A DNA stretch of 64,000 nucleotides from Escherichia phage vB_EcoS_ESCO40, in the sequence record NC_106514.1. One strand, given 5' to 3'. Shown piece by piece: positions 25,076 to 63,929 of this stretch. The notes beneath the pieces are model-generated. The model was not told where the DNA came from, did no database searches, and saw nothing but the letters and a program-made list of their open reading frames with translations. Made by a program: the position numbers and the translations under genes. How positions within the stretch are numbered: the first letter of the stretch is position 1; every line of letters starts with the position of its first letter.

Positions 25076-25301
25076 TTTTACTGATCCTAATATGGTAGGT
25101 ATTGATACTAATGTGTCAACTTATCAGACTAAAACTACAGAACCGGAAAGATTTGTACTAAAAACAGACAAAGAAGGTAATGTTACTTTCTGGGATCCTG
25201 AAGGTTTTGTAGAGCTTTGTACTAATACAGATAATGAGCAGTTAAAATTACTATTAACTATTTATAATCTTGGTATTATAGAAGGTTGTAGAAGAGAATA
25301 G
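25038..25301 (+). CDS. hypothetical protein (87 aa)
   Basis: ORF overlapping the dUTPase 3' end; weak start signals. Confidence 0.3.
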   Translation: MERVDLEVQEANNFTDPNMVGIDTNVSTYQTKTTEPERFVLKTDKEGNVTFWDPEGFVELCTNTDNEQLKLLLTIYNLGIIEGCRRE

Positions 25302-25307
25302 TAGAGA

Positions 25308-25338
25308 AAACCCCAGTGGACAAAATCCGCTGGGGTTT
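25308..25338. terminator. bidirectional terminator between convergent early and late units
   Basis: AAACCCCAG/CTGGGGTTT stem with 13-nt loop; T-rich flank on both strands. Confidence 0.6.
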
Positions 25339-27643: not shown

Positions 27644-30091
27644 TTAAACTTTCTCCCGCATTTGACTATCTGTTAATACTCTATTCCATATTCTAAGGTT
27701 ACGAATATGACCATACAATTTAGTTGAATCTGAAAGTCTACCGCCTATTTCTACTAGTGCGTCCGCGTCCGTTCCTTTCCATGTAAAACCGTGTGAGGTC
27801 TCACCCCTATTACCATTAACAAACGAGGTGACCTCTACATCGCCACGGAGAATAAAACCAAATACATGTGGAGAAAATTGTTTTTCAAATGAATAACCTC
27901 TGGACAGTATAGTTGATCCATCCTCAGTTACCACATACGTGTAAGGTGTAACGGAGGTTCTGTCAAATTCCGCAACAAATGCTTTTCCTCTTACGAAGTA
28001 GTGGTTGTTATCCACTATCATTGGGTATATATTATCTAAGTGAAAGCTATCCCAGTTAACACTTACCTCAGCAAGTAATGAAATATTTGTCCCGAAGAAA
28101 TTATTCCTTGCTGGTATAGTAACATAGTCTAGAGCCCTTGTTGCAGGCGTGCTTCCCGTAATAATGAAGGAGGATGCACAAAAACCCTTTTCAAATTGCG
28201 GGTTACAAAATGATATTTCATCCCCAACTTGTAAAGGCTGACCATCCACCCGACAATAATTCACCGAACCAATAGAATTTCCGCCAATCTCCACAAATTT
28301 ACACATAGCTTCAACTTTCAACCATCCGTTGTCTTCTCTATATATTCTATGTGCTATAGTCCCGCTCCCTTCTACTACAGAAGAAATTTCGCCGGTTCCG
28401 CAACTTATGACAGATCTAGCGCCGAGAATAAGTCCTCCGTCCTCACCTACTAAATAAAATTGAGGGGTAATATAGATATCCTGGCCTGCTTTTACTCGTA
28501 TGGATAAAGAGACATATTCATTTTTCTGACAGTTAATCGCATTTGCTGTTTCACAATAAAATAGGTTTGGCGTATCACCTTGACCATTTTGGTTTACAGT
28601 TGCCGTTGTGTATGTAAAACCATACTTATCAACACCATATGTAACATCGATACGATGTCTATCCGTATTTAAAGAAGCCGGGTCGTTACTGAAAGTAATG
28701 TGATTTGTCCTCTGCCCTTCAATCAAGAGTCCTTGCTTTTCAAATCTAGGCTCATCGATATTGGCAATACAAAACTCACCGTGTTTGTTTATATATGTTG
28801 CATTTGATGCGCGGGAGAAACTGACAACCTTATCCGAGGGCATTGTAATAACATCTTCACCAACTGTTATTTTCTTGTATCCTGGCGAGTAACCTGCAAG
28901 CATATCAAGCGAGTCATTAAAGGGAATCCATACGTCAGGGAATGGTTGAAGATCCGGAGCCCTGTTAGCTGCAATTTCCGCACGGTCTGCTTCTGCTTTT
29001 GCACGGTCTGCCTCTACTTTAGAGCTATTTGCACTACCAGCAGCATTGCTAGCTTGTTGCCCGGCCTCAACAGCACTATTACCTGCTTGTGTAGCAGAAG
29101 CAGCAGCTTGGTTTTTTAAAGTTGTTGTCTCAGATACCGCGCTATCCTTAATACCTTGTGTATCTGTTTTTAATTGCTCAACCTCTGCTTTTAAAGCTGT
29201 TGTCTCTGTTACAGCACTATTTTTAATGGCCTGGGTATCAGATTTTAACTGTTCGACATCCGCTTTTAAAGCTGTTGTCTCTGTTATAGCACTATTTTTA
29301 ATGGCCTGGGTATCAGATTTTAATTGTTCAACATCTGATTTAAGTCCTTGAATAGTAGTTACAGATTGGTTGGCGGAGGCTGCAGACCCTGCCGCATTAG
29401 TTTCGCTAGCCTTAGCTTTTGTTTCCGAGGTTTTTGCATTGGTTTCAGAGATTTTTGCCGCAGATGCCGATGCAGCAGCTTGCCCAGAAAATATTTCCGC
29501 CTCATTCCTAAAACCGCTAGAATCAGCTGCTGATTGAGCTGCATTAGTCTCACTGACCTTTGCATTACCCTCGCTAAGTTTTGCATCAGTAGCTGATTGA
29601 GCTGCATTAGTCTCACTTGCCTTTGCATTAGTCTCACTAATTTTTGCAGCAGCAGCTGATGCGTCAGCATTAGTTTCACTAGTCTTCGCATTAGTTTCAC
29701 TAGTCTTCGCATTAGTTTCACTAGTCTTCGCATTAGTCTCGGATATTTTAGCTGCGGCAGCGGACTCTGCAGACTTATTGGCTGACGCTGCGGACTGAGT
29801 AGCAGAGGTAGCAGACTGAGTAGCAGAAGCTTCTGAAGCTCCAGCAGAAATAGCAGCTTCCTGTTCAGAGTTCTTAGCATTAAGCTCTGAAGTCTTAGCT
29901 GCTATTTCAGAATCTTTTGCAGCCGCAGCAGACTTAGCAGCGGCCTCTATAGAGGATACTAACTCATTAGCAGTAATAGAGCTAATAGAATTTCCAAGAG
30001 TTACTGTGTATCTAGGAAATTTACTAGCAGTAGCTTTAGTATCATCAATATTTAATATTTGTTGTACAATAATCTTAGTAGTTATTGCCAT
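27644..30091 (-). CDS. L-shaped tail fibre protein, proximal part (repeat-rich shaft)
   Basis: N-terminal MAITTKII... then SETNAK heptad repeats and 24-aa DVEQLKSDTQAIKNSA repeats. Confidence 0.7.
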   Translation of the reverse strand: MAITTKIIVQQILNIDDTKATASKFPRYTVTLGNSISSITANELVSSIEAAAKSAAAAKDSEIAAKTSELNAKNSEQEAAISAGASEASATQSATSATQSAASANKSAESAAAAKISETNAKTSETNAKTSETNAKTSETNADASAAAAKISETNAKASETNAAQSATDAKLSEGNAKVSETNAAQSAADSSGFRNEAEIFSGQAAASASAAKISETNAKTSETKAKASETNAAGSAASANQSVTTIQGLKSDVEQLKSDTQAIKNSAITETTALKADVEQLKSDTQAIKNSAVTETTALKAEVEQLKTDTQGIKDSAVSETTTLKNQAAASATQAGNSAVEAGQQASNAAGSANSSKVEADRAKAEADRAEIAANRAPDLQPFPDVWIPFNDSLDMLAGYSPGYKKITVGEDVITMPSDKVVSFSRASNATYINKHGEFCIANIDEPRFEKQGLLIEGQRTNHITFSNDPASLNTDRHRIDVTYGVDKYGFTYTTATVNQNGQGDTPNLFYCETANAINCQKNEYVSLSIRVKAGQDIYITPQFYLVGEDGGLILGARSVISCGTGEISSVVEGSGTIAHRIYREDNGWLKVEAMCKFVEIGGNSIGSVNYCRVDGQPLQVGDEISFCNPQFEKGFCASSFIITGSTPATRALDYVTIPARNNFFGTNISLLAEVSVNWDSFHLDNIYPMIVDNNHYFVRGKAFVAEFDRTSVTPYTYVVTEDGSTILSRGYSFEKQFSPHVFGFILRGDVEVTSFVNGNRGETSHGFTWKGTDADALVEIGGRLSDSTKLYGHIRNLRIWNRVLTDSQMREKV
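29115..29335. repeat. 72-bp tandem repeat (about 3 copies) inside the fibre gene
   Basis: Near-identical units CTTTTAAAGCTGTTGTCTCTGTTA...CAGATTTTAA read directly. Confidence 0.8.
29667..29742. repeat. 21-bp tandem repeat (3.5 copies) inside the fibre gene
   Basis: GCATTAGTTTCACTAGTCTTC repeated head to tail, encoding TSETNAK heptads. Confidence 0.85.
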
Positions 30092-35426: not shown

Positions 35427-36037
35427 AAACTTTCCCGTAAATTTAATGAGATGCCGGAATATGTTCCGTTATTGTTTAATGTAGATCCGAAAGCATCACC
35501 ATTCATGAGTTTTGTTCTAAACAGTATCCCATTAAATACTGGTTTTTCAGCTCCAGTAGTCGTTACAAATAAATCAGGGTATAGATTTATAGACCATGTA
35601 TTGCCTGATTTGTTAAATGATGTTATTTTGTAAACTTTTGGGTGATTGGATAATTTAAATAAATCACCTGGTTTAGGGATACCGGTAAGAACACCTTTTG
35701 TATCCATAGTAATATTGGAACCTTTTTGTCCTGCTGGTATATTTACTAAGTTAGTATTACCCCTAACCCTAAAAGCCTCATACTGAGGTAATATAACATC
35801 AATGTAGCCTCCTGTCCTCTTATACTCTAGAATAAAGGAATCTAGAACACTATATTCATCAGGAAACAATTCTGGGTAAGAAATATTTATACCCCAGTAC
35901 TGAGCAGATACCTTAACTTCGTTAACTTTACCATTAGGTAACTCATCACGAATTACTGGGTCATTATCAATCAGGTTAACACTTTCGAATCCTAATCCTG
36001 AAAGTTCTGGATTCGTGTATGGGTCTGGTAATCTCAT
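35423..36037 (-). CDS. distal tail protein (pb9-like)
   Basis: 204 aa; immediately downstream of the tape measure gene; AAGAGGAG RBS. Confidence 0.6.
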   Translation of the reverse strand: MRLPDPYTNPELSGLGFESVNLIDNDPVIRDELPNGKVNEVKVSAQYWGINISYPELFPDEYSVLDSFILEYKRTGGYIDVILPQYEAFRVRGNTNLVNIPAGQKGSNITMDTKGVLTGIPKPGDLFKLSNHPKVYKITSFNKSGNTWSINLYPDLFVTTTGAEKPVFNGILFRTKLMNGDAFGSTLNNNGTYSGISLNLRESL

Positions 36038-36064
36038 AGTTAATTTCTCCTCTTAGATACAATT

Positions 36065-36093
36065 ATTATAATAGTATTAGAAAATTTTATCAA
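36065..36093 (-). promoter_or_regulatory. sigma70-like promoter for the distal-tail/baseplate operon
   Basis: On the minus strand TTGATA-17 bp-TATAAT about 25 nt upstream of the RBS. Confidence 0.55.
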
Positions 36094-36111
36094 GAAATTT
36101 TTATTTTTCCA

Positions 36112-36139
36112 TAAAGAAAAGGAGGACTCAAAGTCCTCC
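36112..36139 (-). terminator. intrinsic terminator after the tape measure gene
   Basis: GGAGGACT-CAA-AGTCCTCC hairpin followed on the minus strand by TTTTCTTT. Confidence 0.6.
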
Positions 36140-36146
36140 TCCAGTT

Positions 36147-39100
36147 TTAAGAATTTCCTAGTGTTTTTAGGCTAGCACCATTCTCATTCAGAGCTAATTC
36201 TACTGCATCCCTCAGAGCACCGCTATTACTAGAGGCGAACTCTCTAAAACTAGCAGCATCCATAGCACTAATATTCAGGATGATAGGTCTTCCTGAGGTT
36301 GAATTAGAGGAATTTTTTAACTCATCATTAGGTGTAGCTTTCATAGGAATCATAGGTGTAATTACTTCTGTACCATGTTCTCCCATCTGGTAGCTAACCC
36401 CTGGGTACATATTACCACCTTCGGCACGAGGCACAAATGAATTAGCATTACCAATACCTTGATCACCACGTACATAGGATAGTTCCCCAGCATTAGCAGA
36501 CATAGATACATCAATGTTCTTCTGACGCTCCCCAAGAGTTAAATAACTAGTAGTATCCGCTCCAGAATCTGCAATACTTGACATACTAGAGGCAGAGGAT
36601 GCCTGCGCTAATGCCAGAGCACCTGCTAATCCTGCCGCTACCATTAGAGGGATAGAGAACGGGTATGGTACAGCTGTTGCTGCCTGCATAACTGCTACTG
36701 CAGTTTGGATGATAATCTGCTTCTTAGCTGCATCTTGTTGAATCTTCAGCTTTTCAGCTTCTAGCTTCTTCAATTTAGCTTTAGATGCCTCAGATTTACC
36801 ATCACGTTTCTGTTCGGCGGCGATAGCCTGATCAATGGCACTAACCTGCTGACTAGTACTATATTGAATCATGGAAGCCACAGTCTGCATACCAACTGCA
36901 ATAGTAGAAGTGGTATCTAGAGATCCCTGGGAGAACTGAATCATAGCATTGGCTAAGTTACCCATACTTTGTGCTACCGCAGTTGCTTCGGAGTTTAGCT
37001 CGGACAGCTTAGAGATTGCTTGGTCATAAGAAGCCAATTGATTTCCCATATCTGCAAATTTCTTATCTTCTCCAGATAACCCAGTAGTAGGGGTGTATAC
37101 AGCACCTAAAGAAGATCCAACAGAAGCTTGCATTTGAGCATTACGTTGCGCTGTTAAAGCAGACATTTGAGCCCTTGTCTTAGCTATTTCAGCATTCCAG
37201 CGCATCTGCTCATTAGCATTACCTTTAGTAAGTTCCTTCATCTGAGTATAAAAATCTAGCTGCATTTCCATTTTCTGCATTTCCCCAGCCAGAGGGAACA
37301 TGGAAGTTAGTGTATTTTCAAAGGCTTCTTGCCTTTTGCGGGTCATTTCAGCTTGCTGATCTTGGCGGAATTTCCAGATTTCACGCTCTATCTGTGCTTG
37401 AGCACGCCTAGATTGTTCAGCCTCTTTTTGTTTATCTGCCTGTTTTGTGTACCACTCATACTTTTCCTTTTCAATAGTCAGCTCTAGATTTAACTGCGCC
37501 AGACGATACTGAGTATCAGTCATAGTACGGTTATTCAAGAGAGCAATCTCACGATCTACACCAAGAATTTTATCTGTGTAATCCTTGACCTTCTTCTGAG
37601 CTTCCATACCCTGATTGGTAAGTTTAAGTTTCTCCAGCTGAATTTTTTCAATTTCTTTCTCAACAGCTTTATTCCCCTGGTTTGTTTTAAGAACACGGCG
37701 TAAAGCAGCTTCTTGCTCTTCTAACTGTTGCAACTCTAAACGTCTACCAGCTTCCTGAGCCTTTTCCTTATCCTTAGTTTGATTATACACATCAGCTATT
37801 TTCTGTTGAACTGCTAACTGATTTTTAGTTTCATTACCAGTTAGTTTAACATACTCAGATAGAGCCTGAGATGCAGTTTTCATTTCAGACAGGGTGTTAT
37901 AGCCCAGGTTAAGGTTTTTAACATATTCATCGGCACTCTTACCAGTGCCTAAGGATAGAGATTCTATGTTTTTTATAGCATCTGCTAAAGTAGCACTAGT
38001 TTTAGCAGCAGTATCTGTATTCTGAGCAACGTTCTGTATATCATTAGCTAAGTCACTAGCAGTTTTCTTAGTTTGATTATATGCTTTCTGTTGTTCAGTT
38101 AGCCCTTTTAATACTGTGGAGTTAAAGTCATATACAGCACCAGGATCAGTAGTATCCCTCTGTAGATTAATCTGTTTTTGGAATTCTGGATTAGCTTTTG
38201 CAGCAGCAGCACCCGCAGCTTGATAGGCTGACTTCCAAGCATTAAGGTTTTCAGTAGAATCTTCTACCTCCTTACCTAGTCTGGTTACTTGTAGACCCAT
38301 AGCTGCAGTTTCTTCTACGAACTTTTTATTAGCTTCGGAAGCACCAGCAGCAGCAAGACCAACAGGAATACCTTCACCAACTTGACGTATGGCTAATCTT
38401 GTATAGAAATCCGCTTGCTCCATTCGTTTATCGAATTCGGATTTTAGCTTATTACGCTTATCAAGAGATTCCTTATACATATCTAGAGCTTTATTATAGC
38501 CTTCTTCAGAAGCGGCCAAACTTAAAGCAACAGCACCAACGTTGGTAGGATCTATCTGTCTATTAGTTTTTTCTTGAGCTCTAGCTGCTTCAGCAGATAC
38601 AGAAGCCTGAGAAGTATAAAATACTGTGTTGATAGCATCAATTACTGGTCCTAAGTACTTAGCAGCAGCTTGTTGTATTGTTCTTAATGCAGCATCAGCA
38701 TTAGCAGCAAACTGCTCCCATGGAGTAGCACGCAGAACTTCATCTAGATACCCGAATTGTTTAGTAGATTCTGCTATAGCAGCCTTAGCGTATGCCTGCT
38801 GTTTCTGGAAAGTAGTAAGACTATTAATGTTATAAGTTATACCCGTGTTAGCAGCATTTAGCTGTTTAACATAGTCAGCATAAGCATCGTTAAGACGAAT
38901 AGTAATACCAAGTTCATCCATAAGTTCGATTTCTTGTTTAGATATACCCTTAATTACACGGTTAAGTGCATCAGTCATATCAACACCAAGAACAGCAGCC
39001 GCACGACGTGCTATCAAACCAAACTGCTCCAGTTGTTCAGCATCAAATCCGTACGCAGAAGCAGAGGATGCTTGTCTCATTGCTTCTTCAAAGGAGATAG

Positions 39101-39830
39101 CATATCCGGCAGCTTCTTGTAGTGATCTAGCAAGAGACTGAACAGGAGTACCTGTCTGAGTACCTACTATAACACCAAATTTTTCTAGACGATTTAGCTG
39201 GTCACCTAGTTTAAGTTGTTCGAATGCAGATTGCAAAACGAAGATGTTGGAAGCAAGAGCTGCGTACATAATAGGTAAACTACCACCTATCTTAGCCATT
39301 GCTGCAAAATCACGAGTTGCACCGCGTGCTGAACCAGAAGTATTACCAATAGCTCTAGAAGCCCTACCAGCAGCACCAGTAGTATCATTAAAGCCTTTAG
39401 TTGTACCACCTAAAGCTCTATTAGTATCGTATAACCTATCTTGAACTTTCTCTGTTGCAGATGCAACATCATTACCCATTGCTTTAACAGATCTAGAAAC
39501 CCCATCGAATCCAATTTCTAGCTTATCTGTTACTTCAATAAGTTGAATAGCCAGGTAATCTAGCTTATCACCAATACCCTCAATGGATTTAGTGATACCA
39601 GCCATACCCCTACTAGCTTGCATTTTAGTAAGACTTTTTGCTGCCCTGTCTGCTGCCCTCTCAATGGAGTATAGAGTTTTGGGCATTTTACCTAACTGTT
39701 CATTTGTCAGTTCGGAAGCAGCAGCAGCATTTTCTAATGCATCAGATACGTTTTCAATAGACTTCGCAGTACGGGTTGCCCCTTTCTGTTTAACGTCTAT
39801 TAGTAATTCTCGTATTAGCTTATCAGTCAT
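36147..39830 (-). CDS. tail tape measure protein (pb2-like)
   Basis: 1227 aa, largely coiled-coil/Ala-Gln-rich with Gly-rich C-terminal region; position between tail tube and distal tail genes. Confidence 0.8.
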   Translation of the reverse strand: MTDKLIRELLIDVKQKGATRTAKSIENVSDALENAAAASELTNEQLGKMPKTLYSIERAADRAAKSLTKMQASRGMAGITKSIEGIGDKLDYLAIQLIEVTDKLEIGFDGVSRSVKAMGNDVASATEKVQDRLYDTNRALGGTTKGFNDTTGAAGRASRAIGNTSGSARGATRDFAAMAKIGGSLPIMYAALASNIFVLQSAFEQLKLGDQLNRLEKFGVIVGTQTGTPVQSLARSLQEAAGYAISFEEAMRQASSASAYGFDAEQLEQFGLIARRAAAVLGVDMTDALNRVIKGISKQEIELMDELGITIRLNDAYADYVKQLNAANTGITYNINSLTTFQKQQAYAKAAIAESTKQFGYLDEVLRATPWEQFAANADAALRTIQQAAAKYLGPVIDAINTVFYTSQASVSAEAARAQEKTNRQIDPTNVGAVALSLAASEEGYNKALDMYKESLDKRNKLKSEFDKRMEQADFYTRLAIRQVGEGIPVGLAAAGASEANKKFVEETAAMGLQVTRLGKEVEDSTENLNAWKSAYQAAGAAAAKANPEFQKQINLQRDTTDPGAVYDFNSTVLKGLTEQQKAYNQTKKTASDLANDIQNVAQNTDTAAKTSATLADAIKNIESLSLGTGKSADEYVKNLNLGYNTLSEMKTASQALSEYVKLTGNETKNQLAVQQKIADVYNQTKDKEKAQEAGRRLELQQLEEQEAALRRVLKTNQGNKAVEKEIEKIQLEKLKLTNQGMEAQKKVKDYTDKILGVDREIALLNNRTMTDTQYRLAQLNLELTIEKEKYEWYTKQADKQKEAEQSRRAQAQIEREIWKFRQDQQAEMTRKRQEAFENTLTSMFPLAGEMQKMEMQLDFYTQMKELTKGNANEQMRWNAEIAKTRAQMSALTAQRNAQMQASVGSSLGAVYTPTTGLSGEDKKFADMGNQLASYDQAISKLSELNSEATAVAQSMGNLANAMIQFSQGSLDTTSTIAVGMQTVASMIQYSTSQQVSAIDQAIAAEQKRDGKSEASKAKLKKLEAEKLKIQQDAAKKQIIIQTAVAVMQAATAVPYPFSIPLMVAAGLAGALALAQASSASSMSSIADSGADTTSYLTLGERQKNIDVSMSANAGELSYVRGDQGIGNANSFVPRAEGGNMYPGVSYQMGEHGTEVITPMIPMKATPNDELKNSSNSTSGRPIILNISAMDAASFREFASSNSGALRDAVELALNENGASLKTLGNS

Positions 39831-39847
39831 AATTTATTTTTCCCAAT

Positions 39848-39878
39848 AAAAAAGGCTCTGGGCAAATCACCCAGAGCC
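39848..39878 (-). terminator. intrinsic terminator / hairpin module
   Basis: GGCTCTGGG/CCCAGAGCC stem followed on the minus strand by TTTTTTATTGGGAAAAATAAAT and then the tape measure ATG. Confidence 0.65.
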
Positions 39879-39912
39879 AAGCCTCATCGTGGAACGCCCA
39901 TTGGAGGAAACC

Positions 39913-40281
39913 TTACCGTGCTCGAGATTTGGCATGTGGCTTAACGTTAGGTATTCTACCGTTTTGCGGCTTATGCTTCTCAGCACGTTTACGTGCAGCG
40001 TCTACAGCTTTAGCATCAAATATATTGATAATGTGTAGAACAAATTCTTTTTCTATAGGATCAGTAATCCCATAAATATCAAATAAAACACCTAAAGCAG
40101 CTTTGTCTTTACCTATAAAGATAGGGAAGTCACCAGGTATGAAACAGTCAACTAGACTATTATAAATATTCATACTAATAGCTACAATAGGTGGAAAGTC
40201 TTCAAGTTCAACAGGCATAGCCTTAGGATCAGGTTCTATACCCATTGACTCACAAAGTATTAGATATTGTTGTTTAGTCAT
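39913..40281 (-). CDS. hypothetical tail assembly protein (122 aa)
   Basis: Position immediately upstream of the tape measure gene. Confidence 0.4.
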   Translation of the reverse strand: MTKQQYLILCESMGIEPDPKAMPVELEDFPPIVAISMNIYNSLVDCFIPGDFPIFIGKDKAALGVLFDIYGITDPIEKEFVLHIINIFDAKAVDAARKRAEKHKPQNGRIPNVKPHAKSRAR

Positions 40282-40342
40282 TTTAGATGCTGAGCTTTTA
40301 ATACACTTATCTGCAAAATCAGCAACAGCATCTAGTAATTCT

Positions 40343-40762
40343 TTACGCTTTTGAGCTACGAAAAGTATCTAAGTGGAACACTGTCTGGTTGATCCAAGAA
40401 TCAAACGCAGCAGAGTTCTGCATAAGCATTACAGCATTATCACGACTAAATGGAACTTCAGTAGCAGGATCAGCATCTGTTTCAATCAGCATCAGTTTTT
40501 CAACGTCACCTACAGTCAAACCAGTCCAACCTTTAATTGCAGCATCAACGAAAGCTTCGATAAACTTATCGTCATCCTGTACTTGAATTAGAGTACCATT
40601 AACCCACTCATCGCGTTTGGCAGAAGAGACAACACGTTTAGAAGTAGCACGAGACATGTAGTTAAGCTCTAGCTTAAAGTTTGGCATACCTGGGTATGAA
40701 AGAGTAATAGTACGGGTATCAAGAGTAATATCTTTTAAATTAATCATTTTTAATTTCTCCAA
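40343..40762 (-). CDS. hypothetical tail protein (139 aa)
   Basis: Position between tail tube and tape measure genes. Confidence 0.4.
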   Translation of the reverse strand: MEKLKMINLKDITLDTRTITLSYPGMPNFKLELNYMSRATSKRVVSSAKRDEWVNGTLIQVQDDDKFIEAFVDAAIKGWTGLTVGDVEKLMLIETDADPATEVPFSRDNAVMLMQNSAAFDSWINQTVFHLDTFRSSKA

Positions 40763-41642
40763 AGAAATCTATTCTCACTGGGTCTGAAGAAGCAGTAGGT
40801 ATAATATCCCACTCAACTTTATACACATCTGAGAAATCTAGGCGTTTTGTAATACGTGCTAAAGGAAAATCTATAGAAATATTATTATTTCTTATATTTA
40901 AAGGTACATCGGTTTCTGGTTCAATATTGTAAACCATATCTCCAGCAAAACGTTTTAAGTAATATAGAGAAATGGTTGCTGAAGCATTCATTTCATTTAC
41001 ATAGGCTCTTTTATTATTATAGATTTTATTTATATCAAAAACACTCTTATCTTCTCTCCAAGAGCATTGCTGTTGAAAAGATAAAGAAGCGGAAATAAGG
41101 CCAGGTAAGATGCTACCGTTAGTAGAAACTATTACCGGGCTATAAGACATTGCTTCACCTTGTATAATAGAAGCTGCTTCTCTATATGTAGATACCTCGG
41201 AAAATTTCCCTGATTCAATACCAACGTTAAGAATTGGTATATTCTTATCTAAAGAAAAATCTACAGTAGATACATAGCAGTTCTCAAAGTATACACAGTT
41301 ATTATCTTTATTTACTATATAGATATTAAACATAATAGGTTCAATATTGTTACTATATAGTGGTAGTAAGAAAGTATTACCTTTTCTATCAAAACCTAGC
41401 CATTCGAAAAAATTAGCTTCAGTAAGCGTATTACTAAAATTTACTGCTAGAGAGATAGAAGAAGGAGTTTGAGCATTTATAATAGAGTCTGCATAGTTAG
41501 TTCTACGATGAATAGTCCTACGAAGGGTCTTAAATTCTTCGTAGGAGGTTTGTACATCATAGTTTGATAGGGCATCAAAATGAAATGCCCTACCATCATA
41601 CTCAACTATAACTTTTGACTCTCGCATTAGAGAGTAGTACAT
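40740..41642 (-). CDS. hypothetical tail protein (300 aa)
   Basis: ORF directly downstream of the tail tube gene. Confidence 0.45.
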   Translation of the reverse strand: MYYSLMRESKVIVEYDGRAFHFDALSNYDVQTSYEEFKTLRRTIHRRTNYADSIINAQTPSSISLAVNFSNTLTEANFFEWLGFDRKGNTFLLPLYSNNIEPIMFNIYIVNKDNNCVYFENCYVSTVDFSLDKNIPILNVGIESGKFSEVSTYREAASIIQGEAMSYSPVIVSTNGSILPGLISASLSFQQQCSWREDKSVFDINKIYNNKRAYVNEMNASATISLYYLKRFAGDMVYNIEPETDVPLNIRNNNISIDFPLARITKRLDFSDVYKVEWDIIPTASSDPVRIDFFGEIKND

Positions 41643-41646
41643 TTAT

Positions 41647-43053
41647 TTATTCACCAGCACTAACTGTGATAGTTTTAGTACCTTTTACGCCAGAACCGTC
41701 TTTAGCTACAGCCTTCACAATAACTTCGCCCGTTTTAGAAACATCAGCAGTTAATAGTCCAGATTCGGCATCAATCGTAGCGGCATCACCACTAGAAATA
41801 GACCAAGTCACAGCCTTATTAGTAGCTTCTGGAGGGGTTACCTCAACAGACATCTGTAAAGTATTACTATTTGTTACAGAAGTAGCATCAGCAGCAGATT
41901 TAACTGTGATTGATTCGACCAGTTTTGGTGGAGTTTTAGCACCATCCCCCGTAGCAATCAGATTAGCCACAGTAGTTTTTGTATACTTGTTAGAAAATCC
42001 AAGATAACCTTCGTCACCAGTATCCAAATCTGTAGGAATAGCCTTAAACTCTACTGAAGTACCAAGTACATCATCAGTCTCAATAGTAGGAATGTTAACG
42101 TGCGCCTGTTTAGCAACTAACACAGCTGCCGGACGTTCATCATCATATTCACCACCAAGGATAAGTGCAATCTCAAACCTGTTAACTACCTTAAGAGTTT
42201 TAATTAGATCTTTATATAATTCCATAGATCCTAGAGCTTTATCGTTAAGGTATGCTGTTAGAGAACCAGTTAATTCAAATGCACCCGTAAATGAGCCGAT
42301 TGGAATATTTACACGTGACATAATATTCGGGGTTAGATACGTGATGTTGTTATTAATGGTAAAAGTACCACCAGTAATAGGAATATCATATGCCTTATCA
42401 GAATCCATATCCTTAATTTTTAGGATAGTTAACTTGTTCTTAATGTAAGAACTCTGAATAGTCATGTAGGTTTCATCATCAATACCTAATGCATCTGGAT
42501 CAAATGGTTGGCTATCTAACGGAATGAGCTGATTACCATTACCAGACCAAGTTACACGACCAATATCTTCAATATCAACGTTAACTTCTGCCTGGTTGAT
42601 CTGGCAAGAGTCAATATAGCTCCATGCTTTGTCAGTAAGAATGTAGATGTGCAGCATAGCCAACTCATGATAAGAGTTATCTTTAAAGTTAACCATGAAG
42701 TTAGCTTCATTATTATGCGCACCTGTGTCTCCCTCAAGGTTTAACGCTTTACCACTAGAAAGAGCATGCCATAACATGTAGTCGGGAACAATCTGTTTAT
42801 TAGAGGTTTTATCCTTGTATGGCAGGATATAAGTAGAAAAACTCCACTCAGCCGCATTCAAGGAATCGTTAAAACGTTTAGAACCACGAGTAGGACGCGG
42901 ACCAGCTTCGTTAACAGTAATATCTGTTGAGTTGCTGTCCTGACCCCAAGAAATATCATCCTGAACTAGAATCTCTTGCGTGTTGGTCTTATTGTGACCA
43001 GTCTTAACCGTAGACACGAAGATTCGAGTATTACGTAATAGTTGTAAAGACAT
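41647..43053 (-). CDS. major tail tube protein (pb6-like) with C-terminal Ig-like domain
   Basis: 468 aa; C-terminal TVKSAADATSVTN...VTWSISSGDAATID...GEVIVKAVAKDGSG BIG2-like segment. Confidence 0.75.
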   Translation of the reverse strand: MSLQLLRNTRIFVSTVKTGHNKTNTQEILVQDDISWGQDSNSTDITVNEAGPRPTRGSKRFNDSLNAAEWSFSTYILPYKDKTSNKQIVPDYMLWHALSSGKALNLEGDTGAHNNEANFMVNFKDNSYHELAMLHIYILTDKAWSYIDSCQINQAEVNVDIEDIGRVTWSGNGNQLIPLDSQPFDPDALGIDDETYMTIQSSYIKNKLTILKIKDMDSDKAYDIPITGGTFTINNNITYLTPNIMSRVNIPIGSFTGAFELTGSLTAYLNDKALGSMELYKDLIKTLKVVNRFEIALILGGEYDDERPAAVLVAKQAHVNIPTIETDDVLGTSVEFKAIPTDLDTGDEGYLGFSNKYTKTTVANLIATGDGAKTPPKLVESITVKSAADATSVTNSNTLQMSVEVTPPEATNKAVTWSISSGDAATIDAESGLLTADVSKTGEVIVKAVAKDGSGVKGTKTITVSAGE

Positions 43054-43079
43054 TTAATTATTTTCTCCTAATCTGTAAC

Positions 43080-43565
43080 TTATCTGCGAAGTGACCTACG
43101 TGGAGGCTGATACCTCACTGTTACATTTATTTCTGCTAAACCATATGGGGCCAGTAGACCCTCATCTGTACTAACTGATGTAATGCTCATATCAGTCGCC
43201 TCACATGGGAAGGTCGATCCATTAGGTTTACTAACAGTATATTCTAAATTTCCACCTGTGTCAATAACGGTTTTTATATCCGCTACGAGTTTTTCAAGTT
43301 GCTCTTGAATGTCTGTTTTCTCTTTATCGTACACCAGGATTGGAAGTTCTAAAAACATCCACTGTTGGCCTGAAGGAAGATACTGCCCAGTTTCAGTTCC
43401 GATATGAACTGCAACATAAGGAAACTCTCGTATCTCCTCAAACTTATAAGTTTGACGTGAGACGTTTCCATACAAGTTATTAAAATATTCATCTGGTTGA
43501 GAGCCATCCATTTGTTTGGCTATTCGGTCAACCAGAGCTTGTGCTATACTTGTTCTGTGATCCAT
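43080..43565 (-). CDS. tail completion protein
   Basis: 161 aa; position between neck and tail tube genes. Confidence 0.45.
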   Translation of the reverse strand: MDHRTSIAQALVDRIAKQMDGSQPDEYFNNLYGNVSRQTYKFEEIREFPYVAVHIGTETGQYLPSGQQWMFLELPILVYDKEKTDIQEQLEKLVADIKTVIDTGGNLEYTVSKPNGSTFPCEATDMSITSVSTDEGLLAPYGLAEINVTVRYQPPRRSLRR

Positions 43566-43568
43566 TTA

Positions 43569-44336
43569 TTAGGTTCCTTGATTAACCTTAATTTTGTATC
43601 TGGAGTGAATTAAGTCTCTTGCAGCTTTAGCTATCGCCTCTCCAATTAGTCTTTGAGGATTTCTAGCACCTGGGTAGGGTCGTAATGACAATCTTCGATA
43701 TGTAGATACTGCAGGATTAAATACTGAATATGGACGTACCATATAATTATATGTAACATTTAATTCAGGAGCACCTTTGCTAGTTCCAGCATCTCTAAGC
43801 ATAACATCTTTAACTTTTAGAGAATTTGCAAAACGACCTGTTCTAAATTTAAGTGGAGCTCCTGCTTTTTTCATATCCTTTATTAAGTATTCTTTAGCAA
43901 CCAACTCCAGAATAACCTTCATATTACTATTTGACACAAAACGACCAGAAGCACCGGTTACTGCACCAGAATATCCGTCTTCTACATCTCTAGGATCCCC
44001 AAAGTTTACCTCTACTCTACCAGTAGAGCGTTTTTTACCTACAGAAGATTTCTTGCCTGCGGTTGATTGAATAAGGCTTTCTAAAGCCCCTAGATCTCCT
44101 GTTAGGTCTAAGCTAGAAGAAACTGCTTTTAGAATAGAGGCTGTCCTAACACTAAGGAGATCCTGTGATACCGGTTTTGAGAATTTAAAAGATACTTGAG
44201 CAACAGTACCATCTCTAGTGGGATCTTTTAATCCTGTTTCAACAGAATATACAACAGTATTCTTATTGTTCTCGGAACGTCCAACATTATCTAGCTGCTC
44301 CTTAATAATTTGTGTAGCTAAATCAGAAAGAGACAT
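43569..44336 (-). CDS. neck / tail terminator protein
   Basis: 255 aa; position in the head-tail joining cluster. Confidence 0.4.
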   Translation of the reverse strand: MSLSDLATQIIKEQLDNVGRSENNKNTVVYSVETGLKDPTRDGTVAQVSFKFSKPVSQDLLSVRTASILKAVSSSLDLTGDLGALESLIQSTAGKKSSVGKKRSTGRVEVNFGDPRDVEDGYSGAVTGASGRFVSNSNMKVILELVAKEYLIKDMKKAGAPLKFRTGRFANSLKVKDVMLRDAGTSKGAPELNVTYNYMVRPYSVFNPAVSTYRRLSLRPYPGARNPQRLIGEAIAKAARDLIHSRYKIKVNQGT

Positions 44337-44848
44337 TATACTCTCCTGTAAACTTCAATAATAGTACGAATATGCTCTGGAATACCAGACTTAGTATTAT
44401 TAAAGGTAACTGTTTCTCCGCCAATTGTTTTAGCTTGACGGTAATCCTGTTTATGCCAATGATCTACTAGCATACATGCTGCAAGTTTGAGATCTTCAGG
44501 AATTGGGTTAAATCCACCTTGTGTGTATTCTACATCCATATAACCTTCCGGAGGATTAAATTTAAGAAGTATAACCCCATCAGAATACAACTTATACTGT
44601 TTGGGATCTATCTCCTTATCATTAATAGTCATTTTAGTTACTGAAGTAGCCGAGGGAGAACTTAAGAAGTATTTTTTACGAGTAGGTTTTGTATTGATTA
44701 ACTGGTCTACCGCATCAGCATCATCCATACCTAAGAGGCTAGTAATCAGCGCGTTGGCAGCAGTAATCATCATCTCTACTCCAGATTCTAGTTCCGGTCG
44801 TTTTAACCCGCCGTATAGTCTATAGTCTTCAGCTGTGATTATTTGCAT
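44336..44848 (-). CDS. head completion protein
   Basis: 170 aa; first gene after the capsid terminator module. Confidence 0.4.
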   Translation of the reverse strand: MQIITAEDYRLYGGLKRPELESGVEMMITAANALITSLLGMDDADAVDQLINTKPTRKKYFLSSPSATSVTKMTINDKEIDPKQYKLYSDGVILLKFNPPEGYMDVEYTQGGFNPIPEDLKLAACMLVDHWHKQDYRQAKTIGGETVTFNNTKSGIPEHIRTIIEVYRRV

Positions 44849-44862
44849 TTATTTTTCCCAAT

Positions 44863-44889
44863 AAAAAAGGAGAGCCGAAGCTCTCCTTA
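44863..44889 (-). terminator. intrinsic terminator / hairpin module after the capsid gene
   Basis: GGAGAGC-CGAA-GCTCTCC hairpin followed on the minus strand by TTTTTTATTGGGAAAAATAAAT and then ATG. Confidence 0.7.
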
Positions 44890-44907
44890 TCGGCTGAAAA
44901 GCCTGTA

Positions 44908-46284
44908 TTAAGATGCAGCGTAAGTACCAGATACAACGCCATTATTAAAGTAACGTTGCAGGTTAACACGCTGAGTAACGTAGTATGCATCACGCTGTTT
45001 ACCAGCTTGGCGCTCACGTTCAACAGTAACAGCACGCTGACGCGGCATTACGAAGTTATCTTTATAAACAATAACTGCGAACTCTGCTGAGTTAGCTTTA
45101 GCTGGGAAGAATTCAGAAACTACAACCGGCAGACCGTAAATACGACCAACTTGACCTTGCAGTTTAACAGCATCGTTACCAACCTGTGCAACATCCTGCC
45201 ATTCTTCATCTTCCAGCAGATCGTAGTAAGCATCCATAGATACGATCAGTACCAGCTTGCTTAGTTTCAGACCATGACGGCCCAGTTTACGACGCAGTTT
45301 AGAGATAGTCTTAGCGGTTACCTTTACGGAACCGTCAGCTTTAGCTTCTGTGACAACCTTAGCACTATCTTCACTAGCAAGGGTCAACAGACCTTTCGGC
45401 TTACCAGAACCATCACCAGTCATAAATGCTTCTTCGATAGAAACAGCGTGTGCTTCAATCAGACGTTTACGCAGCAGCGGTAGCAGAGAGAAGATTGCAT
45501 CTTCTTCAGTTTCATCAGTAATAAAGGACTTAGCAGCCAGTTTGTAGGTTTTAAAACTAATTTCAGTTAATGTACCTTTAACTTCGTTACCAGTAGTATT
45601 GTCAGTACCATAAGCGGAAGCATCTACCCAAGTAGCTTTACCAGCTTCTGGTTCAACCAGCATAGTAAGAATCTTACTAGACATCGGCAGTTCTTCGAAC
45701 AGTGCGCCAACTACCAGTTCTTTCTGCAGGTCACGAATGATACGGGTAGAGAAAATAGTTTCGTAGTTTTCGCTAGAAACCTGAACTGAGGAAGAAGAGT
45801 TTACAGCTTTAAGGTGATTCTGACCATGTTCAGTTTCGAATACGCCTTTTTCCATTACATAAGATAACAGAACCAGTTTTTCAACTTCATCTTCAAAGGC
45901 TTCCTGAGTACCGTACAGTGCTTTAGCAACACTATCACCAACGAAGGAACGACCTTCACGAGCTGTCAGCAGGGATTTGATTTCGTCCTGAAGACCAACA
46001 ATAGTTTCCTGCTGTTTTTCTACAGTTTGTGCAAACAGTTCTGCGCTCTTCTTAGATTTTTCATCCAGGGATTTAACCAGTTCCAGAGCTTCTTCCAGAC
46101 GCTTACGGTCTTCGCCAACTGCTTTAGAAACCAGGTCATTCATACGAGCCAGTTCTTTTTCTTCCTGCTCTTTACGCATACGTTCAGCTTCCTGAGCTTT
46201 CTGAGCAGCGGTCAGACCTTCCAGAGATTTAGCCAGATCACCCAGACCAAGTTCTTCTTTCAGCTTATTAATATCAATAGTCAT
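44908..46284 (-). CDS. major capsid protein precursor (pb8-like)
   Basis: 458 aa; N-terminal coiled-coil scaffold-like domain then HK97-fold-like body; host-preferred codon usage. Confidence 0.85.
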   Translation of the reverse strand: MTIDINKLKEELGLGDLAKSLEGLTAAQKAQEAERMRKEQEEKELARMNDLVSKAVGEDRKRLEEALELVKSLDEKSKKSAELFAQTVEKQQETIVGLQDEIKSLLTAREGRSFVGDSVAKALYGTQEAFEDEVEKLVLLSYVMEKGVFETEHGQNHLKAVNSSSSVQVSSENYETIFSTRIIRDLQKELVVGALFEELPMSSKILTMLVEPEAGKATWVDASAYGTDNTTGNEVKGTLTEISFKTYKLAAKSFITDETEEDAIFSLLPLLRKRLIEAHAVSIEEAFMTGDGSGKPKGLLTLASEDSAKVVTEAKADGSVKVTAKTISKLRRKLGRHGLKLSKLVLIVSMDAYYDLLEDEEWQDVAQVGNDAVKLQGQVGRIYGLPVVVSEFFPAKANSAEFAVIVYKDNFVMPRQRAVTVERERQAGKQRDAYYVTQRVNLQRYFNNGVVSGTYAAS

Positions 46285-46301
46285 TTTTAAATAATTCTCC
46301 G

Positions 46302-46934
46302 TTATTCTTTAACGTAGCCTAAAGCTATCGCAAGTTTTTCTAGTTCAGAAAGATTACGTTCTTGAGCTGGGACAGCTTTAGAACTTATTGCAGTAAAAGA
46401 TTTACGCCATTCAGTATAATCATGACCATTCATGCTCTTAGCGAGATTGAACGTTGAGTCCTGATTACAAGGTACAGAAACTACCGAAACTTCGTATAGT
46501 TCTAAATCTTTAATAATAAATATATCAGTAGCTTCATCCCACTCTGCATCTAGGCAGCGGAATCCGATACTAAAAGTTTTCAGTACACCGTTTTTAATTA
46601 GTGAAAAGATAGCCGGGTCAGAACTTTCATAGATCTCGCATTCGATTTCGAGACCCATTTCAGTAGGGTTAAGATCAATACACTTGCCGATTGGACGACG
46701 ATGATCGTGTCCGAAAAGAATAATCGGGTTTTTCATGTAGTTAGCAAGTGCATTAGATGTTTTCCACGCAGAAGCAGGAATTACATCACCAGCGCGATCT
46801 TTACTAATTGTGTTAGCGAATCCACGGATTTTTACAACACCTTCTTTGGATTCGCTATCAATAGATTTAATATAAGCATCTAAATGAACGGGTGCTGATT
46901 TTAACTTGTTATAGTCAATAGCAGCTTGTGTCAT
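46302..46934 (-). CDS. prohead protease
   Basis: 210 aa; ILFGHDH segment; position between decoration/portal and capsid genes. Confidence 0.7.
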   Translation of the reverse strand: MTQAAIDYNKLKSAPVHLDAYIKSIDSESKEGVVKIRGFANTISKDRAGDVIPASAWKTSNALANYMKNPIILFGHDHRRPIGKCIDLNPTEMGLEIECEIYESSDPAIFSLIKNGVLKTFSIGFRCLDAEWDEATDIFIIKDLELYEVSVVSVPCNQDSTFNLAKSMNGHDYTEWRKSFTAISSKAVPAQERNLSELEKLAIALGYVKE

Positions 46935-59754: not shown

Positions 59755-59805
59755 ATAAGCATAAATTAATGAGATAATAATAATTATAAGAAATCGTAAC
59801 CAATA

Positions 59806-59897
59806 GAAATAATAACTATAAAAATAATAACTATAAAAATAATAACTATAAAAATAATAACTATAAAAATAATAACTATAAAAATAATAACTATAAG
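59806..59897. repeat. 15-bp tandem repeat, about 6 copies
   Basis: AATAACTATAAAAAT repeated head to tail. Confidence 0.9.
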
Positions 59898-59934
59898 AAA
59901 CTATCGGCCTAAGTGAGAACCACTATCATTTAAG

Positions 59935-63093: not shown

Positions 63094-63290
63094 TCTTAAA
63101 TGAGAATCATTATCATTCGCATTCCACTATCTAACCGATAATCATTTCCTTTCTTAAATGAGAATCATTTCACTTTTTGAATAGTTCTCATTCTCTTTCT
63201 TAAATGAGAATCAATCTCATTTCATTTTCTAAATGCGAATTATTATCATTCTCATTCCGCTTTTTAAATGATAATGATTCTCATTATCAT
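63094..63290. repeat. array of about 5 AT-rich direct repeats (TCTTAAATGAGAATCAT-type)
   Basis: Copies at about 63094, 63153, 63198, 63227 and 63262; the last contains GATAATGATTCTCATTATC, 17 of 19 matches to the Fur-box consensus as recalled. Confidence 0.7.
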
Positions 63291-63328
63291 TCGCATTCAG
63301 GCGAGCAGGGCAATTGCCCTGCGCTTTT

Positions 63329-63929
63329 GTGCAAATCCGACAATTGCTCCAAGGGTTACGTGCTGGCGTGTATGTGCAAATCCGACAATTTTTGGTAGTG
63401 TGCAAATCCGACCCGAAAAATTTTTATAGTGTGCGAATCCGACAATGAATTTTCCTAAAAACTCCAGCAATCACGAACTGCGTTCGAATCCTGTGGGATA
63501 TGTGCAAATCCGACACGGTTTTTCTAGGATTAAGATGTGCGAATCCGATGAAGTTTTTGTGAGTTCGATTGGAAGGTGTGTGATTGTATGGGTTTGTGGA
63601 GAAGGTGAGAGAGCGAGAGAAATTTGGTGGGCTAGAAGGATGTGGTCGCAGGATTGGTGTGGAGCACCTGGTTTGCGGGGATTTTGGGGAAGAGTTGAGA
63701 TAATTTGGGGAAATTTGAGATAGGTGCAGAAAAAGTAAAATTTTATTAGCAAAATGGGGCAAAATAGCTTGACAAGTGAAAATTCTTGTGGCTCTAAAAA
63801 CTCAGGCAATCATGGGCCTTCGGCCCGAAATAATGCTGCTATTTTCAGGAGAGTAAGAGTTCCTAAAAACTTAGGCGTTTGTGCAAATCCGACCATAAAT
63901 TTCTAGAAACACAATGTGCGAATCCGACA
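63329..63929 (+). repeat. eight dispersed direct copies of a 14-bp motif GTGC(A/G)AATCCGA(C/T)
   Basis: Copies at 63329, 63374, 63400, 63431, 63502, 63537, 63881 and 63916, all in the same orientation, each followed within 12 nt by a T-run. Confidence 0.85.
63575..63730 (+). other. G+T-rich strand-asymmetric tract
   Basis: About 150 nt almost devoid of C on the plus strand (GGTGTGTGATTGTATGGGTTTGTGGAGAAGGTGAGAGAGCGAGAG...). Confidence 0.7.

Follow-up and report, generated by a model that had tools for sequence, protein, structure and literature searches.

Putative intrinsic terminators fused to weak ribosome-binding sites before the tape-measure and head completion genes of a T5-like phage

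RESULTS

Two late gene junctions share a hairpin and a 22-nt string

The window (the whole 64-kb stretch of DNA analyzed) comes from the right-hand portion of the genome of a T5-like phage (Tequintavirus); its identity to BF23 at the site is 99.5%. All late genes are on the minus strand. An initial annotation of this DNA had described a hairpin and a 22-nt string duplicated before two late genes, those for the tape measure and for head completion. The duplication was borne out, and both gene calls were right, with 36147-39830 encoding the tape measure (a pb2 homologue) and 44336-44848 the head completion protein. The hairpin coordinates were refined from 39848-39878 to 39854-39878 and from 44863-44889 to 44867-44888. 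The features of the two junctions are as follows.

Site 2, capsid/head completion junction
44908..46284, minus strand: major capsid protein gene, high-copy product, homologue of T5.149 / BF23 D20
44908-44910, minus strand: capsid stop codon TAA
44892..44903, minus strand: small hairpin GGCTTTTCAGCC in the MFE fold, between the capsid stop and the putative terminator
44867..44888, minus strand: putative terminator hairpin AAGGAGAGC-UUCG-GCUCUCCUU, predicted fold
44860..44868, minus strand: U-tract TTTTTTATT, the first 9 nt of the 22-mer
44849..44859, minus strand: ribosome-binding region, GGGA (44856-44859) and spacer AAAATAA
44336..44848, minus strand: head completion protein gene, low-copy product, ATG at 44846-44848

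Site 1, chaperone/tape-measure junction
39913..40281, minus strand: second tape-measure chaperone gene (T5.142 homologue), upstream of the site
39879..39910, minus strand: conserved noncoding block TTTCCTCCAATGGGCGTTCCACGATGAGGCTT, 32 nt, upstream of the hairpin
39854..39878, minus strand: putative terminator hairpin GGCUCUGGGU-GAUUU-GCCCAGAGCC, predicted fold
39845..39853, minus strand: U-tract TTTTTTATT
39831..39844, minus strand: ribosome-binding region, GGGA (39841-39844) and spacer AAAATAAATT
36147..39830, minus strand: tape-measure/pore-forming tail tip protein gene (pb2 homologue)

In the 64-kb window, the 22-mer TTTTTTATTGGGAAAAATAAAT has two exact copies, both on the minus strand, at 39832-39853 and 44847-44868. 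Each lies directly 3' of a GC-rich hairpin and 5' of the start codon of the tape-measure or head completion gene. Identity between the copies reaches 24 nt (CC plus the 22-mer). At site 2, the final 2 bases of the 22-mer (44847-44848) supply the A and T in the ATG of the head completion gene; at site 1, the 22-mer is followed by a T and then by the ATG (39830) of the tape-measure gene. No further match with up to 3 mismatches was found in the window, and none was expected from 100 shuffles. When up to 4 mismatches were allowed, in the window and in positions 1 to 50,000 of BF23, only three late-operon sites were recovered. The third of these is a degenerate copy, and its region also contains a third hairpin.

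36119..36141, minus strand: third putative terminator hairpin, 3' of the tape-measure stop, annotated in T5, BF23, HdH2, and Sugarland
36094..36120, minus strand: degenerate third copy of the string, TTTTCTTTATGGAAAAATAAAAATTTC, 3' of the tape-measure stop (79% copy of the 24 nt at 36099-36122)

In IMG/VR, 31 stretches carried the exact 22-mer, 29 of them on contigs of 104 to 122 kb, the range of T5-like genomes, and many of the contigs with the 22-mer also encode a head completion homologue.

The 22-mer consists of the 9-nt U-tract TTTTTTATT, the 4-nt weak Shine-Dalgarno (SD) sequence GGGA, and an A-rich spacer, and it is therefore no separate element. The bases at its 3' end at site 1 vary among relatives (none, AAC, AAT, or ATT), so that the shared conserved core is the 20-nt sequence TTTTTTATTGGGAAAAATAA. 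Exact reuse of 22 nt holds for this phage; across relatives, only 20 nt are common. Both copies are at the family consensus, hence their identity in this phage; in other genera they drift independently. In T5 and Bas32, a homing-endonuclease-type gene is inserted between the U-tract and the tape-measure ribosome-binding site (RBS), so the two halves of the string are separable. The earlier proposal of a dedicated late regulatory module therefore stands as far as a regulatory feature of the late operon is concerned, but not as a dedicated 22-nt element, since the parts are generic and the copies drift.

The hairpins resemble intrinsic terminators and are conserved in structure

Both hairpins fit an intrinsic terminator, with a GC-rich stem-loop of the usual size (about 5 to 14 bp, loop of 3 to 8 nt) and of a stability well above that of shuffled sequence. 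The hairpin of site 1 (10 bp, loop of 5 nt, -19.1 kcal/mol, z of -5.7) lies 34 nt past the chaperone stop, and that of site 2 (9 bp, UUCG loop, -14.5 kcal/mol, z of -3.7) lies 19 nt past the capsid stop. At both sites, the U-tract begins at the 3' end of the stem on the transcribed strand; no T-run follows either hairpin on the opposite strand. Both hairpins are co-oriented with the genes and lie 3' of a stop codon. The terminator-like character ascribed to them initially is thus upheld by their canonical geometry and by terminator annotation in relatives. Indeed, both units already carry annotations, made independently, as putative rho-independent terminators in T5, BF23, HdH2, and Sugarland. 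The terminators of T5 (AY543070) after D20-21/T5.149, T5.142, and D18-19, like those of the other three phages, occupy orthologous positions and have the same hairpins and U-tract, with 96 to 99.5% identity and no structural difference. These records are predictions only, and they are silent on the common 20- to 24-nt string and its fusion to the RBS.

The order of hairpin, U-tract, SD, and ATG is kept at both junctions in Tequintavirus, Epseptimavirus, Sugarlandvirus, Priunavirus, Novosibvirus, Serratia phage Kamaji, and Vibrio phages. In the stems of the two sites, double-sided changes were found in 5 of the 19 consensus pairs, and the structure is kept across Demerecviridae genera. The site-1 stem has three compensatory pair changes in Sugarland, one in Kamaji, and G.U variants in PSTCR5. 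The Vibrio relatives retain a hairpin at site 2, one pair of which is G-C, G.U, and A-U in phi3, D254, and 70E34, respectively. In the small hairpin after the capsid stop, GGC/GCC is kept in all enterobacterial genera, and the fourth pair, U-A in this phage, has become A-U in PSTCR5. The 42-nt unit of site 2 is 89 to 100% identical across genera, versus 55 to 72% for flanking coding DNA. In Providencia phage PSTCR5, 46 nt (the 42 nt plus a 5' GAT and the A of the ATG) are 100% identical, whereas the neighboring proteins are at 27 to 46%. Such conservation is far above the needs of a terminator and counts against a plain terminator model.

As an SD, GGGA is positioned 7 nt (head completion) and 10 nt (tape measure) 5' of the ATG, within the usual 5 to 10 nt. 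Its predicted duplex is weak (-4.2 kcal/mol); those of the capsid, tube, and Dit genes reach -6.6, -7.3, and -9.1 kcal/mol. Such weakness fits low-copy products. The same position reads GGAGG or AGGAG in Vibrio phages, and an RBS is annotated there in Sugarland.

RNA levels of a relative change at the junctions and at two promoters

Homologues of two T5 late promoters, P-J5 and P-G25 (Bujard-laboratory promoters, annotated in AY543070), are present in the operon.

43236..43264, minus strand: P-J5 homologue, TTGACA-17-TATACT, within the tail-terminator gene; raises expression again for the tail tube gene
36065..36093, minus strand: P-G25 homologue, TTGATA-17-TATAAT; drives the distal tail protein gene

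Published RNA-seq data are available for the Tequintavirus Bas33 at 20 min, as per-gene TPM in two replicates (PMC13250531, Dataset S1). In these steady-state values, counted without strand specificity and in which termination is inseparable from decay or processing, TPM was 5136/3009 for capsid and 1971/1267 for the HEG remnant, after which come the module and the head completion gene at 221/122 (PMC13250531). RNA dropped 23- to 25-fold from capsid to head completion, and 9- to 10-fold across the site-2 unit itself (PMC13250531). At site 1, the drop from chaperone-2 (373/211) to tape measure (169/96) was 2.2-fold (PMC13250531), smaller despite the stronger hairpin there. TPM rose at P-J5 from 211 to 718 (3.4-fold) and at P-G25 from 169 to 327 (PMC13250531).

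DISCUSSION

A model for the two units and its alternatives

On the basis of hairpin geometry, conservation, and RNA levels in Bas33, each site is probably an intrinsic (Rho-independent) terminator within the late structural operon, fused to the weak RBS of the next gene. These terminator-RBS units most likely lower the expression of virion proteins that are needed in few copies and are encoded behind abundant ones: the unit of site 2 would act after the major capsid gene and before the head completion gene, and that of site 1 after the tail tube and chaperone block and before the low-copy tape-measure gene. Host RNA polymerase that has started at late promoters farther upstream would mostly halt in the U-tract, which would give capsid or tube mRNAs a stable 3' hairpin end. 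A minority of polymerases would read through and supply RNA for the downstream cistrons, which would be translated from GGGA and the A-rich spacer, starting right after the U-tract. We infer that the RNA steps are due to termination, not decay, and that read-through is the sole RNA source for the downstream genes.

It is unlikely that the hairpins are mainly RNA stability or processing elements. Late polycistronic RNA would then be cut near the AU-rich string, differential decay would set the RNA steps, and the hairpin would be protective, either by keeping 3' exonucleases off the capsid or tube mRNA upstream of it or, as a 5'-proximal structure, by shielding the cistron downstream. The steps in Bas33 are equally compatible with differential stability, the small drop at the strong site-1 hairpin agrees with it, and the UUCG-capped hairpin of site 2 is very stable and strictly conserved. 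However, a hairpin with an immediate 9-nt U-tract is a specific signature of intrinsic termination and would be superfluous for a mere stabilizer, the tract is kept in every genus examined, and no cleavage site is apparent. The two roles are compatible, because a terminated RNA bears a protective 3' hairpin anyway. A sequence-specific operator would account for the near-invariant sequence; the factor acting on it, of phage or host origin, might be an antiterminator, a translational repressor, or a small RNA, and would coregulate head completion and tape-measure synthesis. We regard this reading as quite improbable. Conservation far above that of the flanking genes and the identity of 20 to 24 nt at two sites would be expected of such an operator, and pairing is possible between the conserved pyrimidine-rich block of site 1 and the SD (GGGA there is predicted to be unpaired with a probability of 0.07 to 0.15, versus about 0.6 at site 2). 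Yet the copies differ from each other at 2 to 6 or more positions in Sugarland, Kamaji, PSTCR5, and Proteus and Vibrio phages, so that no shared exact sequence is required, and T5 and Bas32 split the string by the inserted gene. Sequestration of the SD by the block in relatives was not significant against shuffled-block controls (8, 35, 16, 20, 53, and 87 of 100), no covariation between block and SD was found in relatives, and an Rfam 15 covariance-model scan of 35500-46500 matched no family, giving three chance-level hits only (E of 0.67 to 4.8; 16 to 23 bits versus thresholds of 50 to 100). The 32-nt block has no role in the terminator model. It is unlikely that the near-invariant 42- to 46-nt unit, kept at 89 to 100% in genera with flanking proteins below 50% identity, and the conserved anti-SD-like block after the chaperone stop (TTTCCTCCAAT...GTTCCAC) make up a regulated switch that goes beyond a passive terminator. 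Such a switch might take the form of chaperone-coupled tape-measure translation via unmasking of GGGA, of a site through which a phage factor tunes late read-through, or of a small RNA that derives from the 3' UTR and carries an anti-SD seed.

A late promoter lacking the -35 element, as suggested in the initial annotation, or a string that overlaps a promoter, its A-rich part acting like an UP element of a promoter that extends into the start of the gene, is very improbable. The late promoters of T5 are of the canonical sigma-70 type (PMC7472727; PMC3326045), and T5-type promoters have an A-rich -43 region (PMC3326045). The degenerate third copy adjoins P-G25 and forms the A-rich upstream part of this real late promoter, a Sigma70Pred "hypothetical late promoter" window covers site 2 in the BF23 annotation, and the sequences CTGATA and ATGCAA, where the two genes begin, are similar to -35 hexamers of T5. 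But the distance from U-tract to ATG is a mere 11 to 14 nt; RNA from any -10 in the string would therefore begin at or after the start codon and lack this codon and the SD. A consensus promoter scan between hairpin and ATG gave no hit at either site, the candidate -10s inside the genes (TAATAG and TATAGA) lack the conserved final T, and the -35-like hexamers are codons altered in other genera. A T5-type sigma-70 late promoter was rejected at either site, as no pair of hexamers 16 to 18 nt apart, a -35 (TTGCTw or like TTGACA) and a -10 (TATAAT), lies upstream of the SD; P-G25 and P-J5 belong to the same late operon as the string copies, but the two exact copies have neither such a pair nor space for one. 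Finally, the units could be short homology linkers for swaps of head, neck, and tail modules between coinfecting T5-like phages, with identity arising from recombination, which appears extremely improbable. They do form islands of 89 to 100% identity between diverged genes at module boundaries, and homing-endonuclease-type genes insert beside both units in several relatives. Nevertheless, 42 to 46 nt is very short for efficient exchange, and divergence begins at once on both flanks, so no recent transfer tracts are visible. That structure and U-tract are kept where sequence is not, in the Vibrio phages, points to a function in RNA.

Comparison with known systems

The intrinsic terminators proposed here have counterparts elsewhere. 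In the late operon of T7, an intrinsic-type hairpin terminator, T-phi, lies directly after the major capsid gene 10, and its incomplete termination lowers tail-gene expression. The placement right after the capsid gene is alike, but T7 transcribes with a polymerase of its own and T5 with the sigma-70 RNA polymerase of the host, and there is no sequence relationship. Partial intrinsic terminators between cistrons also cause unequal expression within the rplL-rpoB and rpsU-dnaG operons of Escherichia coli; these are host genes, and the terminator is not fused likewise to the next RBS. The PeSL (promoter-early stem-loop) elements of T4-type phages are likewise short repeated intergenic regulatory cassettes with a stem-loop. 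However, PeSLs include an early promoter, are numerous near mobile accessory genes, and are linked to gene shuffling, whereas the units here lack a promoter and number two to three, each at a fixed syntenic junction between core structural genes.

With the proposed terminators and the internal promoters, the T5-type late operon would be split into expression blocks, in the order capsid, neck proteins, (P-J5) tube and chaperones, tape measure, and (P-G25) baseplate, which match virion stoichiometry. The units would be ordinary operon-internal attenuators of a known kind, and the finding has little weight beyond annotation. A compact, strongly conserved unit of terminator and weak RBS could be of use as a portable attenuator part when phages or operons are engineered.

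Two copies of a hairpin-linked string in the late operon

All late structural genes of the window lie on the minus strand. When assigned after the annotated BF23 and T5 records, their order of transcription was terminase, portal, decoration, protease and major capsid protein; then head completion, tail completion and tail terminator; then tail tube, minor tail protein and two tape-measure chaperones; and last tape measure (pb2), followed by distal tail protein. The 8-kb stretch around both units shared 94-95% identity with many Tequintavirus genomes (H8, T5_ev219, DT57C) and matched 548 Demerecviridae records; over 201 nt around site 2, BF23 was 99.5% identical to the window. Site 1 precedes the tape-measure gene and site 2 the head completion gene:

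44908-46284, minus strand: major capsid protein gene
44867-44888, minus strand: site-2 hairpin with a UUCG loop (-14.5 kcal/mol, z -3.7)
44336-44848, minus strand: head completion gene
39913-40281, minus strand: second tape-measure chaperone gene
39854-39878, minus strand: site-1 hairpin (-19.1 kcal/mol, z -5.7)
36147-39830, minus strand: tape-measure/pb2 gene

The initial annotation had described a 22-nt string exactly duplicated behind the two hairpins, and this was borne out at 39832-39853 and 44847-44868 (both minus). The search for the 22-mer that it had proposed, run on the window, gave these two exact copies and no further match at up to 3 mismatches, and the 22-mer was absent from 100 shuffled controls. 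With a 20-mer at up to 4 mismatches, no copies beyond the late-operon sites were found in the window or in BF23 1-50,000. The copies also agree at two further bases, within the stems, so that 24 nt are identical, and a third copy (79%) is found after the tape-measure stop at 36099-36122. A search of IMG/VR gave 31 stretches with the exact 22-mer, and 29 of these came from contigs as long as a T5-like genome (104-122 kb). The start codons had been placed correctly as well; the detail that differs is that at site 2 the string ends within the start codon, on the A and T of ATG. One extra T separates string and ATG at site 1.

Both hairpins have the features of rho-independent terminators

Each hairpin has a GC-rich stem with a U-tract directly 3' of it, lies in the same orientation as the genes and follows a stop codon, by 19 nt at site 2 (capsid) and by 34 nt at site 1 (chaperone). 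No T-run was present on the opposite strand at either hairpin. In the site-1 stem, both sides were changed in three pairs in Sugarland and in one pair in Kamaji, with a G.U in PSTCR5, and one site-2 pair was A-U, G.U and G-C across three Vibrio phages. RNAalifold gave double-sided changes in 5 of 19 pairs, and the G.U variants can pair solely in the sense RNA. The exact sites are marked as putative rho-independent terminators in the records of T5 (AY543070), BF23 (by ARNold), HdH2 and Sugarland, the last of which also marks an RBS immediately after them. The stem with its U-tract, the position after stops, the covariation and the independent annotations all upheld the earlier description of the hairpins as terminator-like. 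By every sequence criterion, both are putative terminators, and the units are the terminators already annotated in T5-like genomes. Rfam gave no family match in the region, and no transcript-end maps of T5-like phages were found in the literature.

In phage T7, the T-phi terminator follows the capsid gene, and rplL-rpoB of Escherichia coli contains an operon-internal attenuator. By analogy, both units may function like the post-capsid terminator of T7 and like operon-internal attenuators such as that of rplL-rpoB.

The string is a U-tract followed by a weak ribosome-binding site

Both junctions were aligned from nine Demerecviridae, including BF23, T5, Salmonella phage STG2, Klebsiella phage Sugarland, Serratia phage Kamaji, Providencia phage PSTCR5, Proteus phage VTCCBPA139 and Vibrio phage phi3; Vibrio phages D254 and 70E34 were added later, and Aeromonas phage AhP_Mru1 was left out, its record being fragmented by frameshifts. 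All aligned phages had, at both junctions, a hairpin, a T-run, a short purine motif, an A-rich spacer and then ATG. Because the Vibrio phages carry a canonical Shine-Dalgarno (SD) sequence, GGAGG or AGGAG, where the others have GGGA, we read the string as a U-tract (TTTTTTATT), a weak SD (GGGA) and a spacer. The duplex of this GGGA with the 16S 3' end was -4.2 kcal/mol; the capsid SD paired more strongly (-6.6), as did those of tail tube (-7.3), distal tail protein (-9.1) and terminase (-10.6 kcal/mol). Among 44 related loci, the invariant shared part was 20 nt, TTTTTTATTGGGAAAAATAA, followed directly by ATG at site 2 and by nothing, AAC, AAT or ATT before it at site 1; the 22-nt identity in this genome is therefore partly coincidence.

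In T5, the 250-aa gene T5.141, homing-endonuclease-like with CapR and zinc-finger domains, is inserted at site 1 directly after TTTTTTATT, and the tape-measure gene behind it has a different but similar RBS, CAGGAAAACATTAGATG. Bas32 has an insertion of the same kind. In more distant genera, several positions distinguish the site-1 from the site-2 copy, so neither conversion nor a shared reader keeps them identical; concerted evolution and gene conversion were ruled out, the copies being unlike in every such genus. Of the dedicated module proposed earlier, a regulatory, terminator-like unit thus stands; a dedicated, indivisible element does not, given the T5 and Bas32 insertions and the differing copies. 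The T5 nick consensus contains GCGC, which is absent from both units.

Several relatives carry homing-endonuclease-type genes next to the units. At site 1 these separate the U-tract from the tape-measure RBS, and at site 2 they stand between capsid gene and terminator:

15152-15904 of the T5 stretch (L003): T5.141
11843-12640 of the Bas32 stretch (L082): homing-endonuclease-type gene
2149-2719 of the Bas33 stretch (L083): Bas33 0008-0010

Promoters of the late operon

A late promoter without a -35 element, the other possibility raised by the initial annotation, was ruled out by geometry, consensus scan and published T5 promoter features. Only 11 nt (site 2) and 14 nt (site 1) lie between U-tract and ATG, and a promoter consensus scan of this interval gave no match at either site. 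In BF23, the "hypothetical late promoter" annotated over site 2 corresponds to a window of 81 nt from Sigma70Pred and does not represent a mapped start. Both the early and the late promoters of T5 are strong canonical sigma-70 promoters that differ mainly in the discriminator (PMC7472727), with an A-rich -43 region (PMC3326045). Homologues of two annotated T5 late promoters were located in the same operon:

43236-43264, minus strand: P-J5 homologue, TTGACA-17-TATACT
36065-36093, minus strand: P-G25 homologue, TTGATA-17-TATAAT

The A-rich upstream region of P-G25 is supplied by the third, degenerate string copy.

A repeat family on the plus strand, TTGCT...17 nt...TATAATATTTATAxAAATT (2579, 6123, 7150, 8366, 9732, 18613 and 52779), agrees with the consensus published for T5 early promoters, its ATATT discriminator included.

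Conservation around the two units

Over the last 42 nt before the head completion ATG, identity was 89-100% in four phages: Sugarland, Kamaji, PSTCR5 and the Proteus phage. It came to only 55-72% in the flanking coding DNA (150 nt) and to 27-72% in the adjoining protein segments. PSTCR5 matched perfectly over 46 nt (this stretch plus 3 nt upstream and into the ATG), with no match outside them to the 201-nt query. Conservation of the site-2 unit exceeds what a terminator requires, and there is a small residual chance that it hides a regulated switch.

Upstream of the site-1 hairpin, a second stretch was conserved across genera above the level of the adjacent coding DNA:

39879-39910, minus strand: 32-nt non-coding block TTTCCTCCAATGGGCGTTCCACGATGAGGCTT, between chaperone stop and site-1 hairpin

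Its core, TTTC(C)TCCAA, is retained even in distant Vibrio phages. An in-frame continuation past the chaperone stop is open in the window; a coding extension was ruled out because 1-nt and longer indels between stop and block shift the frame in relatives. The block contains two anti-SD-like pyrimidine runs able to pair with the tape-measure SD, and in the predicted fold of the window UUCCA(C) pairs with UUGGGAA, masking this SD (predicted unpaired probability 0.07-0.15, versus ~0.6 at the head completion site). Shuffled-block controls matched the observed masking in 8, 35, 16, 20, 53 and 87 per 100 in six phages, and the masking helix had no covariation. Since masking was thus not above the controls in most relatives, masking of this SD, or a coupling of its gene's translation to that of the chaperone, is put forward as a hypothesis.

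Ahead of the site-2 terminator lies a small hairpin, GGCTTTTCAGCC (44892-44903, minus); its GGC/GCC is kept in all enterobacterial genera, and PSTCR5 has a compensatory U-A to A-U change.

RNA levels in Bas33

Per-gene TPM values 20 min after infection are available for the Tequintavirus Bas33 (2026 PNAS, PMC13250531). Bas33 is HildyBeyeler (MZ501074), whose gene coordinates agree with the published table, and it has both units.

Table. TPM in Bas33, two untreated replicates (PMC13250531). Values are steady-state and counted non-strand-specifically; genes shorter than reads get almost no counts.
Gene, listed as transcribed: replicate 1, replicate 2
Portal: 3262, 1778
Protease: 3996, 2235
Capsid: 5136, 3009
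Degenerate homing-endonuclease ORF, between capsid and site-2 unit: 1971, 1267
Head completion: 221, 122
Tail completion: 377, 231
Tail terminator: 211, 117
Tail tube: 718, 408
Minor tail protein: 247, 143
Chaperone 1: 205, 121
Chaperone 2: 373, 211
Tape measure: 169, 96
Distal tail protein: 327, 199

RNA dropped 23- to 25-fold from capsid to head completion, 9- to 10-fold over the site-2 unit alone, and 2.2-fold between chaperone 2 and the tape-measure gene. It went up again at the positions of P-J5 and P-G25 annotated in T5. This pattern, in steady-state per-gene values rather than mapped ends, is what leaky terminators with internal promoters would predict.

Other features of the window

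A strong terminator-like hairpin on the late strand, CCCCAGCGGATTTTGTCCACTGGGG followed by TTTTCTC (25286-25310, minus; -15.7 kcal/mol), may be where the late operon ends.

The two chaperone ORFs showed an unusual arrangement:

40343-40762, minus strand: first tape-measure chaperone ORF
39913-40281, minus strand: second tape-measure chaperone ORF

The second lacks an SD (duplex -0.1 kcal/mol), and its frame is open for 29 codons further upstream, where it overlaps, in the +1 frame, with the last part of the first ORF. The missing SD and the overlapping open frame suggest a possible G/GT-like recoding event; no frameshift signal was predicted in T5 and Sugarland (PMC6256483).

Families of 21-, 63- and 75-nt repeats that look in-frame lie within a large late gene (29114-29793), whose product is probably a fibre protein containing a repetitive segment of coiled or collagen-like type. 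Three further repeat sets, near the right end, probably belong to the non-coding/terminal-repeat (injection-stop) region of T5-like genomes:

59788-59907: tandem 15-nt repeat ATAAAAATAATAACT, 6-7 copies
63099-63298: cluster of AATGAGAATCATTATCATTC-type repeats
63328-63936: TGTGCAAATCCGACA repeats, at least 7
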